From Vermamoeba vermiformis (taxonomy: Eukaryota), in contig JBEWZL010000011.1 in NCBI GenBank assembly GCA_045837725.1, positions 310,001-374,000 on the forward strand: 64,000 nt of DNA, given 5' to 3'. The position numbers were made by a program, and so were the translations under genes. The stretch's first letter is position 1. Every line of letters starts with the position of its first letter. Shown here piece after piece: positions 20,827 through 60,535 of the stretch. The notes under the pieces were generated by a model. It had not been told where the DNA came from and did no database searches. It was given only the letters and a program-made list of their open reading frames with translations.

Positions 20827-22925
20827 TCACAGTTTTTGGCTTTCATGGTTTCTTTTGGAGTCCAATCTTAGTTGTGCACAAAAGCTGCTTATTTGCTTCA
20901 ACAACTCTATTTTCGTATGGAGACCTTTTGAATTCATCACCTCAACCATGGCTAGATAGATCATTGCCTCCTTGTGTTCAGCTTTGGACAAGGCATAAGC
21001 TGTTAAGGGAGGAACAATAATATAGATATTGTTGGCATTGTTTGGAGTGTCACTGGACTGGAAAACAGATTCCTCATTGCCTTCCAACTGGATAACATTA
21101 ATCATGATGCATTTGTAGAAATTTGACAATGAACTGAACTTACCTGGTACTGTGGAGTTTTTGCAGTGTAAAGACCAAGAGCCCAAATGATTTGAAGAGC
21201 GTTGACAGATACCTCTTTGTTTTGCACTAATAAAGTTTGTGTACCATCTGGCTGGTATGGAGTTGCAAGGAAAGCGTCTTGGACAAATTGTGTGTAAAGT
21301 CTGAATTCATCTCCTTTGAGTTTTGTCCAAGCAGTTAATTCATATTCTCCACCTTGCTCTAAGATGTCTCTGTAGAGTGAAGATAGAAAGCTTTCCTGGT
21401 CCAGAAGATCAGCTGAAATTTCCTCATGTTTTTGTAAGTAGTTTAGAGCCCAAAAGACAATTCTAGGCACTCCTGCTGTTCCTACAGAAATTAACAGGGC
21501 TACATCTTCAACACTAATGCCTTTAAGCTTCAGTTTGTTTGATGCAATCAACTTGTTCGTCATGTTGACAATGTTATGGTGGAGTAGTCTATCAAAAAAG
21601 AAGTGCTTAACTGCACTTGGAGGCACTATGTCATAAAGACCTTTGCCCGTCAAATACAGTAGTGGTGATCTTCCAGAGCAATAAATGTAGCCATAAGGAT
21701 GAAGTGAATGAATCAGAGTCCAGAAGTTGAAGTAAGCTTGGATGTAGTCCCTGTTGGGCTGCAGAAACTGCACTAGTCAGCAAAGATGTGAGCAAATGTA
21801 ACTCATACCTTGTTTTGAAATCCAGTGATTGCATGTTCCTAATAAAGCCAAGTTAGTTCTGTTGACCTCACAACTTAGTAGTGCAACTTACTGAAGCAAC
21901 AGTGTCAATTTCATCAAAGTGAAACATTAGAGGTCTTCCTAACTTCAATTTGAACCACTGAGCTAACAGAGCAATGCTACTGAGGCTGTTTAAGTCTTCA
22001 TCCAAGCCTAGGTTTACACTAATGCACTGCTCTTTCATCATTTGTCGAAGCATGTCAAGAAATGTTGTCTCATTGAAGGGTTGTATCTTTCTCATGTCAA
22101 CATAGATGTATTGTGCTGTCAAAAATTCTTCAAACTTCCTCTTGTGCTTCTCTGGAATCAATCCTTGCAGCTTTTCTTTGCATTTGTTTGCAGAGCGAAC
22201 AATATTTGCGCCAAACCAAGTCTTTCCTGAACCAACCATTTGAGAGGCAATGGCAATTTGTACTTGATTGTTAGTTTCTAGAGTTGCCACACCAACTTCC
22301 CAATTGTGTACCAGCAACTGAATGTACTGCTGCAGTTCTTGCTCACGATTCTCAAAATCATAGTTATCATCCTTAGGTACTATTGCTTCACTGACAGGTG
22401 CAGGACCAAGTTCAGTATTAGCAGTAGTGTCAGATGATTGCATAGTGGTACCTTTTTCTGTGCAGGAGCTTTAGTGTAACTTGGGCAAAACAATTTGTAA
22501 ATTTGAAACAATTTCAGCATTGACAAGATTGAAACATCCTTGTATTTCTTAAAACTTACGAAATTTTGGTGGATCTTTGCATTCTGGTAGATCTGTCTTC
22601 TCTATCTTCCGTTTGAGGGCTAAAAGGTTTTTAATAAATAAACAGGAGGTGGATAAAGATTACCTTGGTACTCTGCTTTTAGCTTTGCGAGTTGCTGGTC
22701 AATCTCGGCAATTCGCTCTAATAAAATGAAAAAACAATTAACGGATTGAAGGTGCAAATTCAACTTCAGGGCGTAGCAATAGAGGCCCCATTTATTTAGT
22801 ATTTTAAAAATTTATCTTGCAATAATACGGGTGTTTTGCGGTTGTTGAGTGCAGCTAATCTGAGATCGAACTTTGTTTTTACGTTCAAGAAAAAGAAAAT
22901 AACGAATCTTACCATTCCCGCTCAT
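20827..22925 (-). CDS. Crinkler/RHS(CR)-type P-loop NTPase protein, possibly C-terminally truncated
   Basis: Walker A QMVGSGKT, Walker B MFHFDEI, CSGRS sensor-like and TAGVPR motifs; short coiled-coil N-terminal exons. No recognisable downstream nuclease domain. Confidence 0.6.
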
Positions 22926-39952: not shown

Positions 39953-42900
39953 TTATTTGAAGAAGATCAAAGGCTTGCCGGGCTCAGCGGAGTTACGGCT
40001 GGCAATGGGTTCAGGAGCAGATTCGTCCAAAGCGGCGTAAATCAAAACTTCCTTAACTTCCAAGGTCCTAAAATAAATAATATATTAATATCATCTTCAT
40101 ACCAAAGAGGTTCAACATGTTGGAAGAAGAAAAAATATAGGTTTCAGGTCGATCTGATCGAATTATGAATCTACTTACTTGCAAACGTAAGCGATGTTGC
40201 TTTGCAAGACGTCCTTCTCGCTGAAGGTAGTAGTCAAGTCCATAGCTTCAACACCACGGTTCTTAACCTCTTCCTTGATGAAGTTGACGAAAGGCATGAC
40301 CTTCTTGGCTTGAGCCTTCAAAGCTGCATCCGCTTGAATAGCATCGTTGATCTCCTTGTTGGCGGGGAACTCCTTAGTTTGCTACAATAAATAGCATATA
40401 TTAGCATTATAGAACATTAAAAGGGAATGGTAAGAAAAAAGTTGTTTTTTTGATCCGGATCTTACCTCGTTGTACAACTTGCGAACCAAGACCAAGGTCT
40501 TCTCTTGCCACTCAGGGTATCTATCAGCAATGTAGATGCTGGCAGTCGTAGGAGCAGCAGGCTTGGCGCCCTTCTTGGGGTTCATGTGCGCGGCCAACTT
40601 CAATCTGAAAGTGTGCAAAGTGTGCATCAAGTAGTCGTTGCGCTTCAACAAGTCATTGTCAATGGGACCAACTGCAGGCCATGAAGCCTTGGTGACGGTG
40701 CCTTGCTCGTTCAAGACGTTACGCCAGATGTGTTCGGCCCAGTGAGGAGTGACAGGGCTGATCATGATGACTTGAACGCGGATGAATCGTTCGATCAATT
40801 CCTTGTTCAAGTCTTGACCCTCAGCTTGGCACACAGTCACGTAGTTGTCACGAGCAGTTTGCAACTCATAGAAGCCAGTCTTGACGGCGTCGTGGAAAGT
40901 CATACTAGAGCTCAGTTAGACACGTGTCACGTGATCGGAAAATATCAGCAAGAACTTACTCAGCGTAGGCCTTGTCAGTCAACTCGATAGCCTTGTTGAT
41001 CTTGCTCTCGAAGACCTTGTCGGCGAAGGTCGTAGCAGGGCCAGCACGCAACTTAGCGTTCTCCTTCAAGGTGTCCTATGACGCGCACGTGAGTCACAAA
41101 TTCAAACGTGTAACATTACTGTTGTAGCCAGTACTTACAACAATCCAGTGGTATTGAGCGTACAACTTCAAGACAGCGTTGTTAACAGTGTCTTCAGAGA
41201 AGTTGGCGTCTTCCAAAGAGTCACCAGCATCGGCCAAAGCAAATCGCATGCCATCAGCGCTGAACATCTCAACGGCATCGTGCAAGATCAAGAAGTTACC
41301 CTTGCTCTTGGACATCTTCTCTTTGTCTCTCAACAAGTGACCGTTGGTACGGACAGACTTGGGCCAGTACTTCTCGGGGAAGATGGCAACGTGGTTGTAG
41401 ACCCAGAAGATCAAGTGGTTAGGAATCAAGTCCTTGCCAGATGCGCGCAAGTCAACGGGGTACCAGTAAGAAAACTCCTTCTTCAACTTGGCCAAAGTGT
41501 CAGCGGGAATGTCACCAACAGCAGGACCGTCGCAGAAGATGTGCTCGAAGAACTAACCACAAAATATTAATAATGGTGTAGGGCTTACACGAATAGTCAG
41601 GTCGTACCTCGTAAGTCAATTGCTCGGGCTTAATGGCAGAAGGTCCAACCTTGGATCCGTCCATAACTCCACCTTGCAACAAGTGGGCAATAGTGTAGTA
41701 AGCCATGTAGATGGTAGAGTCGGACAAAGACTCGATCAAGTAAGAAGGATCCCAAGGCAACTTAGTTCCCAAACCGTAGGTTCGAGAGCAAGCCCATTGG
41801 TGCATCCACTTGAAGGCAGCCTCCATCTTGATGCGGGTCTCAGGGTCGTAAGTGGTCATGCCGTTCAAGCATCTATAAGCATAATCTATTAAAATCCAAT
41901 TCCATAGTGATTAGGGTGACAAGGTGCACTTACCTCTCGGCCAAAGTTCTCCACTCGTCCTCACCGTAGGTCAAGTACCATTGGTCAACCAAGGCGACAA
42001 CGCAAGTGTCACCAGATCGAGAGACGACAGCAGCTTCAGGTTCGCTGTAAATAATGGCTTGTCCGGAAGCCAACAACTCGCTGCGGATCTTCTCCTTGGC
42101 CTTCTCGACCTTCTCGCCGGCGTAAGGGCCAACAGTCATCGTGCCCTCGTAGAAACCAGCCTTGTAGACGATCTCCTTAGCTTCGTCCAACTTGACGCGA
42201 TCACCTTGACCGTTGATCTTCATGCGAGTAACAACGTTCTCGGCGGCCTTATCGCCCAAATCAGGGATGTTGATAATAGGCACAACTTCGAAGTTGACTT
42301 GTTCAGCGGTCAACTTGAAAGTGTCGCGCAATTGTTGCTTTTGTTGAACGTCTCTCCAAGCAACAAAGTCGTCCGGACTGTCAGAAGGTACTGAAGTGAC
42401 GACACCAGTAGTCTTTTCAGTGCTGACAGAGAACATGGGCCAAACGAAGATCTTGTCGTACTTGGTCAAGGGAGCCTTGACGGCGGCACCAATCAAGTCC
42501 TTGCCAGTGAACGAGGCCAAGCACTTGATCTTGCCGAACTCGTGGCTGTAACCTTGGTAAGACAAGTCTGCAAAGATCGTTAGTCACGTGACTTTATATG
42601 ATCAAAGTTGGTGACTTACTAACAGCAGCACGTTCAGTGCAAATGAAGATTTCGTTGTCATTGATCTCAAAAGCACCGTATTTGCCGTCGGGCAAGACCC
42701 AGACGTTAGTTTGACCGTACATGGTCTCAGGTCTCAAAGTCGCAGGGACCAAGTAGACCTTCTTGGTGGTGCCGTTCAACGCGGACAAAGCAGCGGGGAA
42801 AGGCTCCAACAATTGTTGCTTGACCAAGACGTACTCTTGAGGCATAACACCTTCACCAGTAGCACGATCGTGGTCCATACAGGGTTGACCGTCCAAAGGC

Positions 42901-44548
42901 GAGTAGATGGTAAATCTGAAAAACCGATCAGTAACACGAGCAAGCCAAAATGGATAATTTTGATATCAATCGTTTCGTAATATTATATTGAACTAAATAT
43001 GCGTTAAAAGGCGCGTACCGCTTGCCGAATTGGACCTTGCCCAACTTCTTCAATTTTTCGAATTGCCAACGAACGAAAGCGTCATAGTAAGGGTTCTTAT
43101 CGGTCGTGATAAATGTTCTGCGCCAATCAATTTTAGCGCCCATCATATTCAAATCAGTCTACGCAGAAGAATGTTAATCACTATCTCGGATTCGCATCCA
43201 AAAATTTTGTTTGCTTGAGACTTACAATAGCCAAGGGAGGGAAGTAGTCCAGCCAATAATAAGGATCAGCGAACTTATCAATAATGTTTGTGGGGACTCC
43301 TGAGCTCTTCATGATATCCCATTGATAAGCGGCATCACCAGTTTTCTAGTCAAATAGCCGTATTAGTAATTAATTCAGGGACTATTCTCGCAATACAATC
43401 TATCGAGACCGACGGCTTATATAATAAAATGGTAATGCTATTGAATAGGATACTTACGGCAACTGCTTTAGCCTTCTTAGATCTGCCCTTGGTCTCGGGT
43501 TTCTTTTGATCCTTAGACTTATCATCTGCTGCGGGTTTAGCTTCTTCCTTCTCTTCAGGTTCTTCTTGAGGCTTAACCTTAGCTATAATAGCGAAAATTT
43601 GTTAATCGCACGTTGTCATAACGAGATCCATAGCACGTGTAACGGAAAATCGGAAACTTACCAGGGAATTGTGGAGGGTTGCCGTAAGTTTGAATTTCTC
43701 GCTTAATCTTGTCAGCGCTGGCCTATAATTAAATCAATTAGTTAGAATTTTGTAAGCAGAAATTAAATTATTGGATAGACGCTTGATCTAGCTACTTTAT
43801 TGATCCGGTGCTACTTACCATAATAGGCATACCAGTGCAGTGGAAACCGAAGGGGAACAAAGCGTTCTTTCCCTTCAATCTTTGATAGCTGACTTCAAAC
43901 TATAATAATAAGAATAAGCATTTCGATCGCGTGCCAAAAAATTTGTATTACTTACCTCGCATTTGCTCAAAGTAAAAGCGTGTCCCAAATGCAATCTTCC
44001 GTTCATATAAGGGTAAGGGAAGGTGGCAACGTACTATATTAGAAAAAACAGACGATCAGTAAAAGTATTTTTGATAGGAGTGAGTAATTTTTATAATTTT
44101 ATGGTCAAGAGTGTGCAAAAAAAAAGCTAAATATTTATAATATTAGAAAAAAACTTACTTTAGGAACTGAGGGATCTTCGGGAGCATCCATCTCAAACAT
44201 TTTGTTCTGTGCCCAATAGGCTTGAATGTCTTTTTCAACACCCCTCAACCAGTCGCGCTTGGCGTATGATTGAGGTTCCTAATGAAATTAATAGCGTGAG
44301 AAGCAAGCTAAGAATTGGAGTTAACATCCAGATCAAAAAAAAACGTCAGTAATAATTTTCAAAAAATTGAAAAAAGCTACCTTATTAATTCCAAATATAT
44401 TCTTTATGATATACACGCATTTTGCAAATATTTTGACGAGTAAAATAATAACTAACTTCCAAATGTTTCGTCGATCTGCGAAAGATAACGGATTTGTATT
44501 CTTTTGACTTACTGATTTAGTTTGCTGTTTATTCTCTTGTTTTTCCAT
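39953..44548 (-). CDS. LARS1: Cytosolic leucyl-tRNA synthetase
   Basis: [42 protein letters not shown] and KMSKS motifs. Confidence 0.97.
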
Positions 44549-45041: not shown

Positions 45042-48000
45042 ATGGCCTTCACCTCGAATAAAAGACAAAAAACTTTTCATATCTCAAATGAGTGGTTTTG
45101 TGGAGGCCAATTGCCGAACGAGATCTTATACCCGATCGTAGATAAGCTGGACATCAAATCAGTGCAAAGGTATTGTCATTTTAATTCTCTAGAATCATTT
45201 AATAATATGGATTAATTATTACGATACTAATTTATAATGGATATTTCTTATTCTTTTTTATTCTTCTTAGAAATTATTGACGCTCGTTACTATTAATACC
45301 ACGATAAATATTATAAGTTCATTATTTAGTACTTCCGGAAGCACAGCCAAAAAAAAGTCTATCCCGAACACGGTTTTGGGATAGGGATAACGGAACATTC
45401 GCACGATAGCGCCGAGAGAACACCACGGAGAAACAAACCGTCCATATAAAAAATATTGTATTTATTGTTGTCTATGTGATGAAAGTGGTGGCGAGTTGCC
45501 TGGCGAACAAATTTTTGTGGAGTGGATTTGCTCGATCAAATCCGCAAGACCATGAACGATTTTGCCTATTGCAAGATCGTTGGATATATATTTGGGTGTG
45601 GTCAAATCAGAATATATACGTGGTAAGTGAAAATAAATTTTGATTTTTATGGCGGACATCAGCTCGATCAGAAAAATTCAGATCTAGCGTAGAAAATTAG
45701 TTTTACGATAGGATCAATTTTAGATATACTTATACTATTAAATTATGACGATTAATATGTTTATTTTAGCGATTAGACGTAGAACTTTCCGATCGTGCAC
45801 GCGATCGAAATCTGACTTGCATGAACGTAACTCCCCGGACAACAAGGTAAGTAATACTATATTATAAATATATTATACATATTAATGTGTAAAATTAATA
45901 GGAAAAATCAGGGTCACGAGTGGCAATAGGCCCCGAGCACGATCCGGTCTCAGACGAAGTATGTGATTGCGCTTGCTCGGTAAGTCGACTTTATTTGTAT
46001 ATTAGTATATATTATAACTATTTATTTAGATAGAAATCGACGAGATAAAAAGTTTTGGCGGATTGGCTAGCGGATCAAATATTGTAAGTTTCTTTATCAT
46101 CCTGTCATATACAAGCGATTTATATAATATATTTGACCGTTTTTTTATTATAATAATGCAAATCGATGACTAACATTTTTGTTTTTAGACTTGATCCGAT
46201 CAGCGTACTTTGGAGCGGACGTATGATGCACAGCGAATTTTGCATCATGATCTGGCATCAAGTAGATATGCTCATTGGTGACCTAAATAACATCAATAGA
46301 GGGTTAGTGCTCAGAATTGCTTGCTTGAATAGCATTGCTTTATTAAAGTACGTGGCACGCACTTTTTTTTAAATAATATATACATTGTTCTTATCTTTAA
46401 ATAGCGTTAATATTTTCACTATAGAGCAACCACCCCATCCGAGAGGAAATGACAACGATTGGCCACAATTCGCAATTCTCACTGCCCGATCTTCGTCACT
46501 CGTGAATTGCAACAATCTCAAGTCGAAGAACACATGTGAGGCTTGACTCAACCGTTGGCGATCTGGTCCGTAGTTTCTAATGCTCGCCTCAAACACGCGA
46601 GTTAACTCGCCTTCATACTCAATGCCCTGGTACTATAGATGGACGTGAGAAGATAGTCAGATCGGTATGTACCTTGATCTTCAATCCAGTTGTAGGAGCT
46701 ACGACAACCTTGGCTCCTTGATAGTAAAATCCTAATTAACACCGTATTAATAGGTTATGATCGAATTGCTTGTACCTTTGAATGTGACCATGCTGCGAAT
46801 TCTAAACGCTGTCACCCGCGGATCGACGTAAATTTGACGAAGTCGGTTCTTGTCATTGTCGGTTGGCTCTACTTTTTCAATTGCTTTATGCAACTCGAAT
46901 TCTCTAATTAGAGCTCTGTAAGTATCAATCTTATTGTGCCAACGTTAGTTGACTAACGTTTTAGCAGTGCGACTCTTTCGTGGCGAGAAGAACTCAGCCG
47001 CTGACTTGACATTGCCGTCATCATCAACGTACGTCTTCATTCTTGCTGCACGCATGTTTTCATTCTAAACTCTTATTAATACAACTCTTGTTCGTAGGCA
47101 TTGGTCTAATTACCTGCAGCAAAATGTCGTTGCACGTGTTCACGTAGTTGGAGTAGTGAACAGCCTTTCGTTTGTCTTTGTTCGTACCCTCTTCAGAGCT
47201 CGTTGATTGCACCCAGAGCGGACCAAGGAAACGAATTTGAGACGACACTGCATAGAGAGTCTCGAAGTTCGGATTTTTGAATTTTCGATCAGGAAATAGT
47301 TTCTACGATGATTAATCAAGTATGGAACAACACATCCTTACGATCAAATCAGATCTGACTTGATGCACGAGAATATCCAAGTCATTATGCACTTGTATCT
47401 CGTCAAATGTCCACTGTCGTTGAAGAATTGCAAGCAGGCCATTCATGATCCGGGACCAAAGCATATACTTCTCTGCTTTAAGAAGCCTGTACGAGTTAGA
47501 AGGTGTGGTACAAAGACATGCAGCTTACCTTTGATGGGCAATTATGGATAGGTGCCCATACGTGCGCCACATTTTACCCGAAAGGGGTCCCGTGAACTTA
47601 CGGCTATCGTCTATGGTTGTCAATAGGTAAGTACTATCTAGTATTGCTATTCAAATACTTACTTTTTGCATCCTTGTAGATATCAAACGAGATTGTGGTC
47701 AAGTGTGGCGGTGTATGAAGACCGTTAATTGCAGCGTTCATTGTGTTCCTGTACTTTGCTGGCGATAGATCATCCTTGTAGGCACCTGCTAAACTGCATA
47801 TTGCTTCTGCGCATAGCTTGATGAGGCCAAGAGATATTAGATGAAGAGAGCAAACGCCAAACCGCTCAAAGAAGTTATGCGAGAATATTCTTAACTTCCA
47901 AAAGACGCTCTAAATAGTAAGTGAGCATTTGTAATAACTATTATACTAACCTTCTTTGCAGTGAAGCCACTATCTTCTTGCGTTTCTTGAACCAGGTCGG

Positions 48001-51000
48001 GATCATTGCTTGCAATCATGGTGTCAATCATTTGTTGCACTACTTTCATTTGTAAGTTATCTCATGATACGTTGATATACGTACTCCTTTCGGGATCTCT
48101 AAAGAGTCGACCTGCGTATTCTAAATTTTTAAACTCCCAGCTTGGAGTCTCAGTGTAGAAGGATGGAAAGTTCCCACTCGAGCCCACAGTACCTGCCAAC
48201 TCGCAACGACCTGGATGATCGGACTTGACCATGTGGAGGCCACCAACAGGTAAGACAACCTTTCCTTTAAACAAAATCGGGTTCGCGCGTTTGTTCTCGA
48301 GGTCAGCAAAGTACGTAATGAGGACATCATCGATGAATTCCTTTTTTCGCTCCGCAAAGTCTTTTCCGAGAGTGACGATATCAAACTTGCAATCACTTTT
48401 TTTCGAGTCCTATTAGAATAGAGTTAATTTGAGTATCTCTGTGACTTGAGCACTTACCTCCAAGCCAACGTTCGCAAACGAGATGTACATCGAACAAAAG
48501 TTTTGTTTTTGGATTGCGTCAAACCCGTCGACCCATAAGTTGAATAATATCAACTTGTATAACCCGGTGTCAAGGTCTGTAGCAAACTCCTCGTCATACT
48601 TTTTGAATCCTTCGTAGCCAGAAGGGTGCTTGACGTCATCGTTGGCACGCTCAACCCAATGAGCATCGAATAGTCCTCTCTTCGTGATGTACTCCAGTAT
48701 GTCGTGAGGGTGATGGTACAGAATCGGCTTTGTTGCACCAGCAAAGTAGTATTCTCTGGTAGGAATGCGATCGAGTATAAACTCGTCGCACTTATTGGCG
48801 AGGTGAATTGTGGGTGCCACTGTCTCATTGTTCAACGAGAAGAGTTGAGTCTGAGTAATATCAAGTAGCTCTTGATATGCAGCATCTGTACACACATGTC
48901 ATAATCGTTGGTTCATTGTTACTGTGACTTACCGCTGATGTTATTGCGATGTCGCCAGTTTGTCAGTGCAATCTGAGCTTCACTATTTACGTATTTGATA
49001 TATTCAGCAGGGCGTCCTATTTTGTTGACAACTGGCACCTTCTTTACTTGCTTGGGCGAGTGTCGAACAGTGCACGTGGTGACCGACGTCGACAGTTCGT
49101 AGTCGTCTATGTCAACACCAGTTGCCAATGACACGTGAGTTTGAGCGAGTAGATCGCTGGTTACGCAAAACTTCTTGGTGCATTGCCAAGTATTGTCCAA
49201 ACTCTTCACCTTGAAATTGAGCTGCAGCTCTACGTGAAACAGACCCTCGCTATCATCACGTTCTCTTGAAGTGATGAGAATGTTGTACGTGCCGGCGTCT
49301 GCTTTCACAAGTCGAACATTTAAACTCCTATTAAGCTTTAATAGACATCAACTGATTATAGTATTACCAGTTGTCGAGACCAGGAAGGCGAACACTGTCA
49401 GTTGTCAAACTGGTCACCGTACTTCTGAACCATTGTTCAACAACAACTTCAGGCTCATCAGCGTAAGTATCTATATCCATTTCGTCTTCAAACGAGTAAT
49501 CATCATCTTCGACACTATTATTATTATTGTTGTTATTATTATTTATATTATTATTTCGGATCTCATTCGCCCGCTGAACGTCTCCTTCAGCTGGTATCAT
49601 TTTAGTACTATCATATACATTAATATATTATCTTACTATAGGCCTTCATAATTTCAGCATGAAGTGGTTGCGAGCGATGCGTTCCTAGGATGATCGCGCG
49701 GTACGTGACAGGATCTGCTCCGCAGACTTTGCAACAGTAGGCCTTGCCATATTGGGACTTGCTAAACAGTTTACTGTTAGTCTTGAGGATTGTGGACATC
49801 GAGAGATGGTGGTCGAGGTCAGTACAAATGAATTAAATTTGAAGTTCAATTTTTTCGTTTTATTTCTGCTAACGAACCAGTACAATAGCATGCCACCAAA
49901 GCGACAGAGATCCAGTGACGATACAACCCTTGCCATGGGCCTTGGCTCGCCATTGCCAGCTGCAGACTGTGGCAATCAAGCAAAAAAGTAAGTTAAATCT
50001 GCCGATCCGGAATTTTCGAAACTTTATTTTGCTTTAAATAATTTGCAACTAATATATAATAGCATACGAAAATATATAATAGCCAAATTTACTATTTTTA
50101 AGAGAATCGAGTTGCATACAAATTTTAAAAAATTAACTAACGAACTAAATCCAGGCAGAAGATCTGCGCCTCCGAACCGAATGGCTCTTCCATGAATGAG
50201 GAACCGTAAGTAATATTAGAATATATTAATTTTGATTAACCATATTATTTAGGATTGATTGGAGCGAATCAATGAACATTCGAATTTTGAAGGTCTGGAA
50301 CGCGCTTCGTCGTGGCGATGTACCTGCAGAGGTACTAAAAAGGTATAATGTCGACGAAGTAGCTCTTCGAAATCAAGAAGAGCAATACATAAAAGAGCGA
50401 GAAGAAGACACACCGGCCTTGATCTGGGTACGTAGCCGTTTGATCTTAAACTTGACTAACCAACTGACAGAGCAAGATGAAGGAGCTCTATCATCGCGAC
50501 ATATTCTGTACGCACCCGAATTGGAAGGCTCAACAGCTTCGACCCTGGCTTGATGACGAGATCAAGTCCAAGAACGTTCAACCAATGACAGCAGTCATTC
50601 ATGAGAAGATTATTGACAAGGTAAGTTAAGCTTATATAACAACTCTATGCATATGACTCACTTTTCTGTTCAGCTTGTAAAGTTCTTCTCTCGTGAACGC
50701 GATGCTCTTGGTCAGCACCTGATCGACTTTGCCGAAAGCCATCACGATCACAAGGCCAAGGCTAAGGCCGACAAGAACTACTTAACGACAAAGGAGGGAA
50801 GGCAATGGCTAATCCGGGCAGCAAGACACATTATGGATCCGAGGTCAACAGTTCCGAACCACCTCACGCCCAGCAATGAGCTCTTAGATTATCTTGAGCC
50901 AATGCTGCTGGTGATTGGTAAGTACTCGAACAGTTTGATTATATACTAACTATATACAAAGCCCTCACTCCTGTTGGCAAGGTGCCTGACCTTGGTCAGT

Positions 51001-52980
51001 TCAAGAGCCGAAAGAAAGACAAGTCCATCGCCAAGGACTTTATGGGATACAAACATACGCAAAAGCCGGGTACGTTTTATTTGTTTAGTAATAACAAGCT
51101 GACTCTGTTAATTAGTTGAGCCAAAGCTCCCAGCGGAAGGTACGTAGTCTCGATCCGTAAACTGATCCTTACTGACCGTGTCCCTTAGTGAAACAAGGCA
51201 AGTCAAATGCGAACAGTAAGACTAATGTTATTTTTAATCAATTCTCATACGAACTAACGTACATTGAAGAGAAAGGCGGCAAATCCAAGGCAAACGCATC
51301 GGCGAAAAAGACCACTGGTGAGTACAATTACAATAGAATTATTTCTCATTGTTAATAAATCATAAAATTAAGGAACGCGCACAAGCAACAGAAAGAATAG
51401 CACAAGTGGTAAGCCACCTAAAACTTGATCCGAATTAATTTATTAATTTTTATTTACAGGCATGTCTGTTGGTGAAGATCGCCCTGCTTCTTTAGATGAG
51501 AGCTGCGAGACAGTCAACTACGACATCTTGCTGAGTGACAGTGACGAAGATGAAGATCCGATCCCGATGCGGATCACGAACAACACCAATGCCAAGAAGT
51601 AAGTCCGGCACCCTGTCTATATATTATATTATGTAACTTATTATGTATCTCCTTATTGTATATAAATAAATATTATATTAAACGTAAACTGTTGTAATGT
51701 ATTGTACGTACCACGATCTTATCCACCTGCTATCCGCTTCTCTTATCCCTCGTTATTATATCCGTTTTTATCCGGATTCGTGGTGTCTTTTATCCTGTCC
51801 GTTTTGCTGTTTCCGGACTGACTTTTTTTTGGCTGTGAGTTTTAAAAGAATTAATCTTTTTCTTTAGTATGAGCCTCACTTGCAAAAGCTGGAACCGGAA
51901 TGTCTGGAGATACGTCGCGCATTTTGACACAAGAATTGAAGAGGACAACGGCACTATTAGTAGACTATCCTTTACGGTGGCGAATGCCATTTTATGCAAA
52001 TTGGATCCATTGCACCTCTCTTCAATTTATTTCCACGCCAAACTTTCTCCGAATCAAGGGTATGAAAATTCGAATTACGAAAGTTTTAATTTATCCTTCG
52101 TTTAGGTTTCCAGGTGTCTTGTTGCAATGCACTCGTGTGTGCGGCCTCACGTACATTAATGGCCTGAGTACCAGATCCGACGCTATGCCCTCGGATGCTC
52201 CTCCTCCTTTCAAGATAGAAAAATTCTCGAGGCTATATTCATTAAACCTATCGATACCTTTCAAAGGATGGATCGCAGCCATGACACAGTTAACTTCGCT
52301 TAGTCTGCCGAGTTGGCCAATCAGTAGTAATCAAGAATTACTGAAAATGACGAATTTAGTGCATCTTCGTATTGGTAACGAAGTTTTTCCGCAAAGCTTG
52401 CAAGATCTGGCAAAGATGACGCAGATCCAAAACCTAGAGCTAGACAGTCAGTCTCAGTATGACAACGTTCTGACGTCAATGACAAACCTTACTCATTTAA
52501 GGGTATTTAATTTCGAAGAAAACGACGTACCGCCCCCGAATGTAACTTCGCTGACAGTATTCCAGATCAACAATTATCCGAAACTAATGAAACTGGAGGC
52601 GTTGGAGCTGAGTAAGTATTCATAATAGCAAAATACATATGATATACTTGGAAGGCTAATTGGACGCTGTTCTAGCTGGCTATTGCTTCGAAGATCGGTT
52701 TGACTTCAAAAAAATTTCGTCTCTGGCAAGCCTTCGTAGTCTAACTTATCGCGATTTCAGTATTTTTCATGTTCCATATTTAACCAACCTGACAAAACTG
52801 GCAATATTGGACAGACGAGCAACCTCCTTAATGAATTTGAATTGGATCCAGCATTTCACTTTGCTAACGCGATTGCAAGTCTTCGAATACAGCTGTAAAC
52901 CAAGAGTGTGTCCTTATATGGTCGCTGCATTGTTTCCGTTACGAGACGTTGTTATCAGGTTCCTCCCAAACTTGGCTTAA
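45042..52980 (+). CDS. F-box/leucine-rich-repeat protein; intron 1 carries the transposon
   Basis: Exon 1 (45042-45169) LPNEILYPIVDKLDIKSVQ joins exon 2 (from 51868) SMSLTCKSWNRNVW to complete an F-box. Later exons carry LRRs (MTQLTSLSL, MTNLVHLRI, LTNLTKLAI). Confidence 0.8.
45342..45359 (+). repeat. Left terminal inverted repeat
   Basis: CACAGCCAAAAAAAAGTC is the exact reverse complement of 51820-51837. Confidence 0.95.
46369..49799 (-). CDS. EnSpm/Plavaka-like DDE transposase, about 14 exons
   Basis: N-terminal CKVC...H.....H zinc finger, poly-Asn/acidic linker, LWVDGFD, KSDHPGR, CSLH (C/DxxH), GKMWR and FLGPLW...SEEGTN. Manual splicing gives one uninterrupted frame. Confidence 0.82.
49890..51602 (+). 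CDS. Transposon accessory ORF of unknown function, 11 exons
   Basis: All 11 exons join in frame from MPPKRQR to TAA at 51600-51602; basic micro-exons and an acidic tail. Confidence 0.75.
51719..51796. repeat. Subterminal TATCC/GGATA repeat cluster of the transposon
   Basis: Six TATCC copies inside the right TIR; GGGATAGGGATAA at 45378-45390 inside the left TIR. Confidence 0.65.
51820..51837 (-). repeat. Right terminal inverted repeat
   Basis: GACTTTTTTTTGGCTGTG followed by AG. Confidence 0.95.
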
Positions 52981-56014: not shown

Positions 56015-57092
56015 TTATTTGCGGAAGAAAGCAGTCACAGGGTTGCCGGTCCAAGCTTGGGTACAAGTGATGTTCGGATTCGTCTTGGTAGGAGGAGCCT
56101 GAACGATACGTACGTCAATAATAGCTATTATGGAGATAATATAATATCTTACATAGACGTAGGGAGATAAAGGACCAACGGCGGTGTTGAAAAAGTTGAT
56201 CACGACGGTGTTCACGTACTCAACGTTATCGACTTGAACTTGAACAACGTTGTTGCCAGGGCCAGTTGAGACCCAAACGGTAACAGGCATAACGACATCG
56301 AATACATTAGCTAATTACGGACGTTAGAACTAATTCCGAAATTTTGTAAGGATGCGATCCTGATCCGAAAGTTGTACTTACCCACGAAGTTCCAGCCAGT
56401 GCACGATTGGCCCAAGACGACCTTGTTGCCGAGGAAAGTCGAGTTTGCAGGAATTTGGAATGGAAAAACAGCAACAAACCAGATCGGAATTGAGCCTAAT
56501 ACAAGATCCGTAAGTTCGGTAATAACGTTTATTGAGATGAAAAAATTACTAGTATACTATTAATAATAATTTTGCTAGTGTATTCATATAATTTGTTACT
56601 CACCCATATTCCAGCACAAAGCTCCTTCGAACATGTAACCTAAGATCCGGAAATTAGTTCGTCACATCCAAGGTTCAAATTACTCATGTCATACCATTAA
56701 CAGAACCTTGGTTATCAGGTGAAGCTACAAAGTTGGTATGGAAAGACAACGGGACAACTGCAACATCAAAGTGTCAGATCCGGTTAGAAAGATTTTTTTT
56801 TCGAAGGGTTTAACGTACATTCTTCACGGCCAATATCCAAGAATGCACCGCCATGAACGAAATCTAGCGCAAGGAATCCATTGATGTACACGGGTGAAGT
56901 AAAGTCGGGGAAGACAACTGCAGATAAAAAGTAAGTGGATCGGATTGCAATTTTGCTTAATTATTATTTTAATTGATGCTTACTAGTATAATTAGAAGTA
57001 AATTGTTGCGGGAGCTTCGGAGCTGTTTGGCAAAAGCCGGATGCAGCGACGCAAAGGATCAAAGCGAGTAGAAGGAAAGCTCTATTGTTCAT
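56015..57092 (-). CDS. Secreted ependymin-related/LolA-fold-like protein, paralogue A
   Basis: Signal peptide, APKLPQQF, NGFLALDF, LCW, FLG...LGQSCTGW and FFNTAVGPLS. Confidence 0.55.
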
Positions 57093-57579: not shown

Positions 57580-58687
57580 TTAAGATCGGAAAAGGACTGA
57601 CAAAGGGTTGCGAATCCATGCTTTTGTGCAACTGAGCTTTGGATTAGGCGGAGCCTAAGAAACACGTAAGTCAGTTCATGGATAAATTACATTGAATATT
57701 AGTATTAATAACATTATCTTACGTAGATTGATGGCGAGAAAGGACCAACTGCGGTGTTAAAAAAGTTGATCTGAACAGATCCGACGTATTTCAAATCACC
57801 GATGTGAACTTGAACGATTGCATTGGATTTATTGGACACCCAAATAGCAACGGGAATAGGTATATTGAGGTAATGAACTATAATATATTGTTAGATTTGA
57901 AAAAAGGAGCACTTGTTAGGTGACCAGATCCGGGGACTATACGTACGAGTAAATATCCACCCGCTGCACGATTGACCTTCTATCACTTGATGGCCCGTGA
58001 AAGAAGCATTGGAAGGTATTTGGAATGGGAAAAGAGCTACTAAGAATGTTGGAATCGAACCTGAAAGTGAACGGATCCGTTAGGTAAAAAAAAACTGCCT
58101 ACATACTTCAAAACCGCCCAATTTACTCGAAAATATATTTGCTAAAATTCATAATTGAATATAGATACTAACCAAAGTCCCAGCATAAAGGACCTTCGTA
58201 CATGTAACCTGAAAGAAGTTTGTCAGATCTACCGTTGAAGAAATTTCTCACCTGAATAATTACCAGTTACCGAACCTTGACCGTTAGGCGAAGCAACAAA
58301 TTGGGTGTGCATCGATAAAGGAACGACTAAAGTGTCAAAGTGTCAAAATTGAAACGAGACTTGATCTGAACCTTACACTCTTCTCCACCGATTTCAATGA
58401 ATGCGCCGGTATTAATATAGTCTAGAGCTAGCAGTCCTTTGATGGAGATCGGAGAAGCATAGTTTGGAAGGACGACTAGAGCAAAATCATTAGTAAGTAT
58501 TTTAGAAAGATTTTGTGCAACAATTTAACGCACTGAATAATTCAATTAATTATAGTAAATATAAAATTATAATTATATAATTACCCGATATATTAGAGAT
58601 AAATTGCTGCGGTAGCTTTGGAGGATTTTGGCAATAAATACTTCCGAGGCACAAAGCAGCCGCAACTACCAGAAATCTCGCAATCAT
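57580..58687 (-). CDS. Secreted ependymin-related-like protein, paralogue B (tandem duplicate)
   Basis: PPKLPQQF, GYMYEGPLCW, FPFQIPSN and FFNTAVGPFS; exon layout matches paralogue A. Confidence 0.55.
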
Positions 58688-58863: not shown

Positions 58864-59188
58864 TTAGAGATACCAGGCACCTCCAGCGTCATCGTCGCTA
58901 GAAGGAGGCTGAGTGCAGTTGCTACGCGCATCGTCGCTGTAGTCTTCGTCTTCAGCGTCAGACACTTCAGTATCGTTCATCTTCATGTTCTTGTCGCGAA
59001 TAGCAATTCTGATGACCCAGTCACAAAACTCGGATTCGCCAAGCGCGTCACATCCACCAGCAGATCCGACGACTTTGAGCATTTTCAAAGCGCTGATCTT
59101 GCCGACGGTTCCGAAAAGAACGGTTTCGTAGTGCTCCAGGCGAGCGGCTGATGGAATGACTCGGTCAAACTTTCTCGTGCGGTCGTTG
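58864..59188 (-). pseudogene. 5'-truncated tandem paralogue of the C-terminus of the 59387-60535 gene
   Basis: Shares RKFDR.IP.AA.L..YE.VLFGTVGKISALKMLKVVGSA.GCDA.GESEF.DWVIRIAIRDKNMKMN; no ATG or upstream exons. Confidence 0.7.
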
Positions 59189-59386
59189 AGCGCCCCACGT
59201 GCTCGATCCTGCTGTATTTTTCGGTCTCGCGCCAAAGTTAAATTTCGTTATTTCTTATTAATAAGACGCAAGCAACGATAATTTTGGCAAATAGTTTATA
59301 TAACGTAACAAATGAAACTACAAATCGCTTAAAAGCCAGCTGAAAAGATCAGCTAAATCCACCGCAGAAGAGAAGGCGGTTGGTTC

Positions 59387-60535
59387 CTATTGCATCGATT
59401 GTCTCAAGAGGTACCAAGTTGGATTAGGATAGTATCCTTCACCATCAGAAGAGTCATCGTCGCTCTCTTCCGAAGGAGGATCCGTGCAGTTGCTCTTCGA
59501 GTCGTCGCTGAACTCGTCTTCAGACTCAGACACTTCGTTCTTGTTCATTTTCATGTTCTTGTCGCGGATAGCAATTCTGATGACCCAATCGTCGAACTCG
59601 GACTCGCCATGGGCGTCACATCCAGCAGCAGATCCGACGACTTTGAGCATTTTCAGAGCGCTGATTTTGCCGACAGTTCCGAAAAGAACGTCTTCGTAGT
59701 TCTTGAGGCAAGCGGCCGTTGGAATACTTCGGTCAAACTTTCTCTTGCGATCGTTGCGCTTCTTTTGGAACAATTTCGTGCCTGACTTTTCGAGATCCGG
59801 TTGAGGTTTGCCGAGCATGGCGGGAGATCTGACGCCTCCATAAAGCGACACGAAGCGCGGGGGTCGAAGATGATAGTCGTACTTGAACTGGACCGATGAG
59901 GCGTTGCCTATTGGCGAGTACAAGCGCAGATCTAGCTCGATCGTACGAGGTTCGTAGACGTCCTCCCAAAGCACCGAATCTTTGATAACGTAGATGCCTA
60001 TTATATTATTGTTATATTCCGTCAGTCGAATCACCTAAAAGAAGCTTACCAGCTTCGAGAGTGTCCAGCAGGTCAAGTTTTCAAATTGCTTGATCCCTTT
60101 GGCGACTTGACGGAGATTCTCTCGAGATCGCTTGAGTACGGTAGCGGAATAGTCGTCATCGTCGTCCTCAACTAACGGTAAAGTTTAAGAAAACGGAAAC
60201 GCTAAAAATGACACGTACTGGATTTAGCATCCAAAGAACTTCTTTCTTTGAAGTAGGCCTGCCATTGAGATTCAGTGACGGTACTGTCGAAAGGAGCTTG
60301 CAACTTCCATTTCTTGATGCATTTTTGCGCCCAATCTCCGTTTGGCAATTCGTTGCCAGAGTTTGCCTTGGCAACTCGAGTCTTCTTTGAGTCTATCGAG
60401 ACCAAACGTCAGACAGACAATTTAAAAATAGTCCACTAATTACCTTTGTTGCGCGATCGAGATTCCTGCAAGGCTATGTCAGCAACGTTTCCATTTCGAT
60501 AATTTTGCCAAGGTTGGCAAATCTGGACTTACCAT
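59387..60535 (-). CDS. Hypothetical protein with acidic C-terminus
   Basis: ATG-only first coding exon followed by spliced exons; a duplicated copy supports coding status. Confidence 0.75.

Follow-up and report, generated by a model that had tools for sequence, protein, structure and literature searches.

The stretch of DNA analysed here (the window) comprises 64,000 nucleotides (nt) of Vermamoeba vermiformis, positions 310,001 to 374,000 of contig JBEWZL010000011.1 (assembly GCA_045837725.1), and harbors at 45342-51837 a DNA transposon, the transposase of which is the main subject of this work. Three spliced units are found in the element, namely the transposase gene, a second gene on the opposite strand (gene 2) and a further unit in the left arm (unit 3), whereas a previous interpretation of the letters alone (the sequence-only reading) had described a two-gene element. 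The features of the element, in window coordinates, are the following.

45340..45341, no strand: left copy of the target-site duplication, AG, from comparison of the flanks
45342..45359, plus strand: left terminal inverted repeat (TIR), 18 bp, with the CACAG end, from the inverted-repeat match
45359..45389, no strand: left subterminal region, with GGATA/TATCC at 45360, 45379 and 45385 and an imperfect 26-bp palindrome at 45359-45384
45479..46372, plus strand: unit 3, five exons, introns 45623-45769, 45847-45901, 45980-46029 and 46084-46188, convergent with the transposase gene
46369..49799, minus strand: transposase gene, 14 exons, 951 amino acids (aa), from open frame and splice consensus
49800..49889, no strand: spacer of 90 nt between the two start codons, a presumed bidirectional promoter
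49890..51602, plus strand: gene 2, 11 exons, 367 aa, from a frame model and the splice joints of sequencing run X5 (see below)
51720..51795, minus strand: right subterminal array of six inward GGATA motifs, from motif counts against shuffles
51820..51837, minus strand: right TIR, 18 bp
51838..51839, no strand: right copy of the target-site duplication, AG, from comparison of the flanks

The element is a real transposon judging from its whole anatomy, since CAC ends, a duplication, subterminal motifs and enclosed genes are found together. As previously read, the TIRs form a perfect 18-bp inverted repeat, which when extended reaches 27 bp at 89%. The length of the TIRs alone is no proof, since the window holds two further perfect 18-bp inverted matches, both out of one short tandem motif. 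An 18-bp TGACACTT tandem motif is present at three places and in both orientations (34456, 35735 and 58345-58347). The termini of the element, CACAG...CTGTG, agree with the 5'-CA..TG-3' ends of the CMCT clade, in which EnSpm/CACTA, Mirage, Chapaev, Transib, Plavaka and ESTA as well as Lanisha are grouped together with RAG1 (PMC12730594). The 2-bp AG duplication anticipated by the sequence-only reading is found on both sides, within the 2-5 bp of this clade, and comparison of the flanks of the window copy showed no 3-bp version. The GGATA subterminal repeats likewise hold: facing inward, the motif occurs six times in the right terminal 150 nt against 0.46 in shuffled sequence, with none of 2000 shuffles reaching six, and twice in the left terminal 150 nt against 0.22, with 21 of 2000 reaching two.

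The transposase gene contains 13 GT-AG introns of 39-52 nt, which join into one open frame of 951 aa; the introns are uniformly short, as had been noted, with a lower limit of 39 nt instead of about 38 nt. The motifs WVDG, KSDHP, CSLH and SEEGTN, at positions 378, 465, 561 and 735, provide the candidate catalytic residues D380, D467 and E737 and a C561-x-x-H564 pair, and an N-terminal CxxC is found at 23-26. The single open frame and the D, D, CxxH and E residues of the sequence-only reading are retained, but its CxxH is a motif of the LH/DxxH type and not the C(2)C that marks the CMC (CACTA/Mirage/Chapaev) group. Frame and splice consensus alone define the ATG and the introns except introns 3-5; in-frame insertions of a relative, P0001, fall exactly at introns 3 and 4, and the alignments of several relatives stop at intron 5. 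The head-to-head arrangement with gene 2 had been put forward as a novelty, and the two ATGs do lie exactly 90 nt apart on opposite strands, but this back-to-back layout is probably not unusual. In fact, the gene layout, the short introns and the 2-bp duplication are ordinary or host-typical features, short introns resembling a trait of the host because the second intron of the interrupted host gene has 46 nt. In the literature searched, no description of a head-to-head EnSpm layout was found. The stop codon of the transposase (minus strand) and that of a 49-codon ATG frame in exon 5 of unit 3 (plus strand) share one TTAA at 46369-46372, which may be due to chance in AT-rich DNA.

The nearest full relative of the transposase, P0001, is 49% identical over 352 columns, and a HMMER scan with this protein retrieved 18 proteins, three of which (P0005, P0016 and P0019) cover the whole catalytic core with 24-26% identity over residues 260-510, P0019 aligning over 759 columns. 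D, D, CxLH, GP and E all fall within the alignment of the relatives, and all four full-length sequences keep both D residues, C-x-L-H and the closing E. C-x-L-H would be the equivalent of H795 of RAG1, the third conserved His of the CMCT clade. Other searches gave little: exon 4 as a protein query returned P0001 only and the P0001 core returned only itself; a sequence search of the PDB yielded nothing significant, RAG1 appearing at E 5 only; Rfam gave no match; viral contigs contained no locus for P0019, P0005 or the TIR, and metagenomes a single chance locus; and none of the 12 TIR matches in prokaryote genomes was accompanied by homology to the transposase or gene 2. On sequence comparison the family is thus without a close match in the collections searched, a set outside which Repbase and Dfam lie, and in this respect the possible new CMC family of the sequence-only reading stands, but not its filing under CMC, since C(2)C and H(3-4)H are both missing. 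In P0018 and P0019, a MIB_HERC2 domain and a zinc-finger-like region are located N-terminal to the core (Pfam E 1e-10 to 6e-12).

According to Kojima 2025, C(2)C and H(3-4)H are shared by all the CMCT lineages listed there and by RAG1. In RAG1 the four residues (ZnC2/ZnH2) together hold a single zinc ion and thereby stabilise the fold (PMC7204232, PMC13056857); in pig RAG1 the cysteines are found at D+19/+22 and the histidines at E-25/-20 (PMC13056857). At the corresponding positions the window transposase displays S486, T489, E713 and A717, and no CxxC is found between D467 and E737. Among the 11 sequences covering the first half (20 were aligned), D+19 is Ser in all; at D+22 none has Cys, the residue being T in five, S in three, F in two and R in one. 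Likewise, the first His of H(3-4)H is replaced by Asp/Glu in each of the five covering sequences, and the second is kept in two of the five. Since both halves are lost with fixed polar substitutes across sequences only 20-26% identical, the comparison points to an old, selected change and not to decay.

A fold comparison was made with an AlphaFold model of P0019 (18 alignment rows, predicted local distance difference test (pLDDT) 53, predicted template-modelling score 0.37). Foldseek placed RAG1 first (E 3.4e-4, probability 0.97), and RAG, RAGL and Transib structures accounted for all 32 rows shown up to rank 39; VIA-align also placed RAG1 first (Z 7.0, root-mean-square deviation 13.3, 267 residues aligned), followed by BbRAGL (6.9) and HzTransib (6.0), and aligned residue 712 of P0019, which immediately precedes the motif of this protein, with residues 932-937 of mouse RAG1. 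The predicted RAG1/Transib-like fold is supporting evidence and does not decide the matter.

Evidence on transcription and on other copies was obtained from sequencing reads, four of the 23 listed runs (X1, X5, X20 and X22) having been mapped; the other 19 comprise 16 with a small or zero share and three from the same sample or under the same label, and no RNA run was listed as containing the sequence. X1 is a DNA run, probably of the source sample and hence not independent. X5, guessed to be an RNA run, carries another organism label, and its host-exon pieces differ from the window in 1/155 and 1/232 letters. The raw RNA runs X20 and X22 gave two and five mapped reads, respectively, with almost none on the host gene, and are uninformative on expression. 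In X1 the left TIR is also joined, at 45342, to a different flank ending in CA, and the right TIR runs out at 51837 into a different flank starting with CA, which suggests a second 2-bp duplication if both ends belong to one copy. The proposal to compare duplication lengths at other insertions is answered to that extent, a further 2-bp (CA) junction pair having been found. A variant with the following deletion was also present in X1.

49021..49837, no strand: segment absent from the second copy, from X1 joint 49020-49838 (depth 310.9), so that this copy is without the start codon, the first two exons and the greater part of exon 3 of the transposase gene

The depth of this variant is about 305-365, against 770-1140 for the main contigs listed. 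Despite the second copy, no variant is listed in X1 across the transposase core (47034-48996, 1963 nt). Bearing in mind that depth is not copy number, these data agree with an intact copy plus one or more defective ones that separated from it recently, and suggest that the element was recently copied. At 51167-51250 the second copy displays nine substitutions and one deletion in 84 nt against none in the transposase core, and such an uneven distribution of differences suggests that subfamilies have recombined. In four X22 reads the right TIR is flanked on either side by different sequence; these come from a sister element, in a strain for which the host gene failed to map. Among the X1 joints listed none skips the whole element, and no empty site or excision footprint is shown in the mapped runs.

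Our preferred and, we think, probable explanation is that the element is a DNA transposon of the RAG1/Transib/EnSpm (CMCT) type, autonomous by its looks and moving by cut and paste, and belonging to a divergent lineage that has lost the two-Cys/two-His zinc site. The transposase, with D380, D467 and E737 and with H564 beside the active site, would bind the TIRs, excise the element and reinsert it with a 2-nt stagger. We further hypothesize, at about even odds, that the insertion domain is held together, in place of zinc, by polar contacts of the invariant Ser and of the Asp/Glu found where the ligands used to be. Several observations weigh against this explanation. No Pfam transposase family, Transposase_21 (PF02992) and PF18759 included, matched the 9 of 14 exons scanned (E<=1) or the 19 relatives (E<=0.1). 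The fold is that of a relative, P0019, and not of the window protein, the model is poor, a Z of 7 lies within the common range of the tool, and the same model matched a viral library spuriously at E 5.5e-5. The motif positions were taken from spacing and a rough structural range, and of the 11 sequences three are close (71-93% identical) to the window protein or to each other. Another metal site is possible, given a Cys at D+18 of P0019, a CPPC overlapping CxLH in P0005, and H606-x3-H610 and C472 in the window protein. Finally, the transposase pieces in X5 have a depth of 2-5 and, among the joints listed, retain introns 8 and 9. The potentially active autonomous element of the sequence-only reading is accordingly upheld in part: the frame is intact and copying is suggested, but the X5 transposase pieces are shallow and contain introns.

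One alternative, although an unlikely one, is an ordinary divergent family of EnSpm/TRC or Plavaka type in which the zinc ligands have moved or been replaced (H468, C472, C561, H564, H606/H610), or the loss of which already occurs among Repbase families. H468 is kept in nine of the 11 sequences and C561/H564 in all four full-length ones, but C472 and H606/H610 are not conserved in the full-length relatives. By ESM features, the nearest clusters to the P0019 core are a basidiomycete cluster (0.96), Plavaka (0.95) and Transposase_21 (0.91), and the nearest named clusters carry PF18759 on 41-100% of their members; the full-length relatives are nevertheless also without a Pfam match to EnSpm or Plavaka, and the Kojima 2025 motifs, common to all lineages listed there, speak against an ordinary member. 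CAC ends with 2-bp duplications are known from animal CACTA elements (PMC6004678, PMC1636069), and with the animal and fungal EnSpm/TRC elements SmTRC1, ENS1_Cis and CMC-NA the window element shares the 2-bp duplication, as well as CAC ends like those of ENS1_Cis (PMC1636069, PMC6004678). It also shares the first-D motif I-x-F-x-L-x2-D-G, a comparable D-to-D spacing (87 here against about 80) and the box A motif of SmTRC1, with C for D (PMC1636069). It differs from what is described for these elements in the absence of a Transposase_21 match, of W-P after the first D and of CxxC after the second D; its gene 2, separate and divergently oriented, and its third unit are further differences. Plavaka, of fungi and red algae, is the nearest named family by ESM and likewise has 2-bp duplications and accessory genes (PMC12730594, bioRxiv 10.1101/2025.02.11.637652), but its reported ends are TGT..ACA (PlavakaA) or CATCA..TGATG (PlavakaB) against CACAG here, the window transposase has no PF18759 match in the exons scanned and lacks C(2)C and H(3-4)H, and the accessory genes here match neither TET/JBP nor other families.

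The remaining comparisons are also mixed. With the CMCT clade as a whole the element shares CA..TG termini, a 2-bp duplication, D-D-E residues with a long helical insertion, the LH His and perhaps, to judge from the poor P0019 model, a RAG1/Transib-like fold, but it differs from the published definition in having neither C(2)C nor H(3-4)H (PMC12730594). RAG1, ProtoRAG and HzTransib are the best structural matches to the P0019 model, and the motif distances counted from the second D and from the last E agree, but the ligands of their ZnC2/ZnH2 site are missing here (PMC7204232, PMC13056857). Maize En/Spm shares CAC ends, subterminal repeat arrays and a second element-encoded protein, but is described with one alternatively spliced TnpA/TnpD unit in place of two divergent genes (PMC1636069). 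ESTA has a TA duplication against AG and CA here. Chapaev shares CAC ends and the LH motif, but has duplications of 3-4 bp together with C(2)C and H(4)H, against 2 bp and neither motif in the window element. In brief, the element acts like a CMCT transposon, yet shows neither of the two clade motifs, and since the ends or duplications of Plavaka, ESTA and Chapaev were not found either, it was filed in none of them. The DDT elements of Dictyostelium are two-gene elements with 2-bp duplications. No description of an amoebozoan EnSpm was found in the literature searched.

A second alternative, namely that the transposase is catalytically dead or domesticated, that its zinc loss reflects decay and that some other element mobilised the copies in trans, is considered very improbable. 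It would be in accordance with the lack of spliced transposase messenger RNA among the X5 joints listed, with a second copy devoid of the transposase start, and with the disruption of domains reported upon mutation of the RAG1 zinc site (PMC13056857). Against it, all 951 codons are open, D-D-E is conserved, the TIRs are perfect and the duplication is intact, and the finding of the same substitutions in relatives only 20-26% identical indicates an old, selected change. The KDZ, hAT and Mutator groups were rejected on the 2-bp duplication and the RAG1-type spacing, their own duplications being longer.

Gene 2 has ten introns, of 43-55 nt save the first (167 nt). Eight GT-AG joints of X5 cover nine of them, one joint spanning two introns and a 27-nt exon, and at the tenth a loose end of X5 reads on into the next exon, so that all ten are supported, in a copy nearly identical to that of the window. 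The predicted protein displays a helical core and a basic tail (22 K+R against 7 D+E in residues 241-330). With single exons as queries, it was assigned to no family by Pfam, homology, ESM or fold searches: for exon 5, the homology search retained none of 30 candidates, ESM matches were at chance level, the fold (single-sequence model, pLDDT 72) had no Foldseek match (best Z 4.8) and viral contigs gave one chance locus, while exons 3, 4 and 5, each scanned singly, had no match to the BEN domain. Likewise, no description of CACTA elements with BEN was found in the literature searched. In maize, En/Spm makes a 3-bp duplication and TnpA binds the subterminal repeats. The window element differs in its 2-bp duplication, and gene 2 has no sequence match to TnpA. 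By analogy with what TnpA does in maize, and because of its position, we tentatively propose that the gene 2 product could be a TnpA-like helper binding the GGATA arrays and that both main genes could be driven from the 90-nt spacer, a combined proposal that falls somewhat short of an even chance.

Unit 3 is probably a decaying or fast-evolving third gene. On the plus strand of the left arm four GTAAGT donors are present against 0.17 in shuffles (none of 2000), and they bound AT-rich segments with matching acceptors, the introns having a GC content of 13-26% against 36-55% in the exons, and one intron having a clear branch site. The contigs of X5 skip the positions of introns 1, 2 and 4, and a fourth joint, with diverged flanks, spans intron 3; the depth of unit 3 in this run (11.9) is the maximum of the element. 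The reading frame is not clean, the longest ATG frame, from 45479, meeting a stop in exon 3 after 82 codons. In exons 1-2 the X5 copy differs from the window at seven positions, of which five are synonymous, one missense and one nonsense in the 45479 frame. As calculated from the table of joints, this copy is 2 nt shorter at the exon 2/3 junction, a difference that would connect this frame to the open frame of exons 3-4. The X5 copy lacks the 45479 ATG; its left TIR is preceded by 15 foreign letters, and beyond 46362 its sequence diverges.

We slightly favor the view that unit 3, whether captured or accessory, is a gene in the course of decay. The alternative, that it is no gene of the element and stems from read-through of a flanking promoter spliced at cryptic sites, or acts as a non-coding antisense regulator of the transposase, is less likely but carries appreciable weight. 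The foreign letters and the divergence after 46362 would suit such a view, as the X5 record may be a short derivative located elsewhere, and so would the lack of a long clean frame, the nonsense codon and the missing ATG. On the other hand, read-through is at odds with the four consensus donors, their matching acceptors and the branch site, with the differences in one frame, five of seven being synonymous, and with the recurrence of the exon 2-3 sequence in other X1 contigs with a diverged intron. These X1 contigs share exons 2-3 (45798-45916) and then continue into different sequence, which suggests sister elements or a host gene family. A near-perfect 20-bp palindrome (90%) at 45524-45543, in exon 1, borders a segment absent from the X5 copy. 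An interpretation of the left-arm GTAAGT motifs as minus-strand branch sites was rejected, because they bound plus-strand AT-rich segments that are skipped in X5, and the 15 bp that unit 3 has in common with an intron close by, at 43920, were attributed to chance (E 0.05).

The element is inserted in an F-box/leucine-rich repeat (LRR)-like host gene with the following exons.

45042..45169, plus strand: exon 1 of the host gene, encoding the first half of an F-box-like motif; weak Pfam match to PRANC (E 0.081)
51868..52625, plus strand: host gene exons 2-3, with intron 52060-52105; F-box E 0.78, weak, and LRR_14 E 1.3e-5; probably on to about 52980

Joining 45169 to 51868 restores the F-box-like motif, followed by leucine-rich repeats, in an open frame. 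The element lies within intron 1 (45170-51867), which would have 200 nt without it, and this intronic position is probably what makes the window copy tolerated. A leucyl-tRNA synthetase-like gene, named by eye, is located at 40382-44250, head-to-head with the host gene (45042) and about 800 nt apart. Elsewhere in the window were found a tandem coding duplicate of 82% identity with acidic tails and no Pfam match (58885-59191 and 59450-59759), a tandem pair of minus-strand paralogues, both rich in introns, with patches 67-84% identical (56145-56776 and 57715-58345), and a spliced minus-strand gene that contains a P-loop-like GSGKT motif and for which the two exons scanned had no Pfam match (20827-22470).

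As a broader reading, which we hold to be about as probable as its contrary, the transposase may represent an undescribed, old protist lineage of RAG1-like transposons that is independent of the structural zinc otherwise regarded as common to the CMCT clade and RAG1 and carries conserved Ser and Asp/Glu instead. The member described here would then be an element of three units that moved recently and whose helper gene is an orphan. The two-Cys/two-His site serves in the diagnosis of CMC/CMCT transposases, and RAG1 requires it for folding; an intact, recently copied element with both halves of the site replaced would show that it is dispensable for the fold. If true, such a lineage would constitute a natural test of what the zinc site of RAG1 is for, would give a natural comparison for structure-function work on RAG1, and would mark a group overlooked by annotation based on motifs and Pfam.

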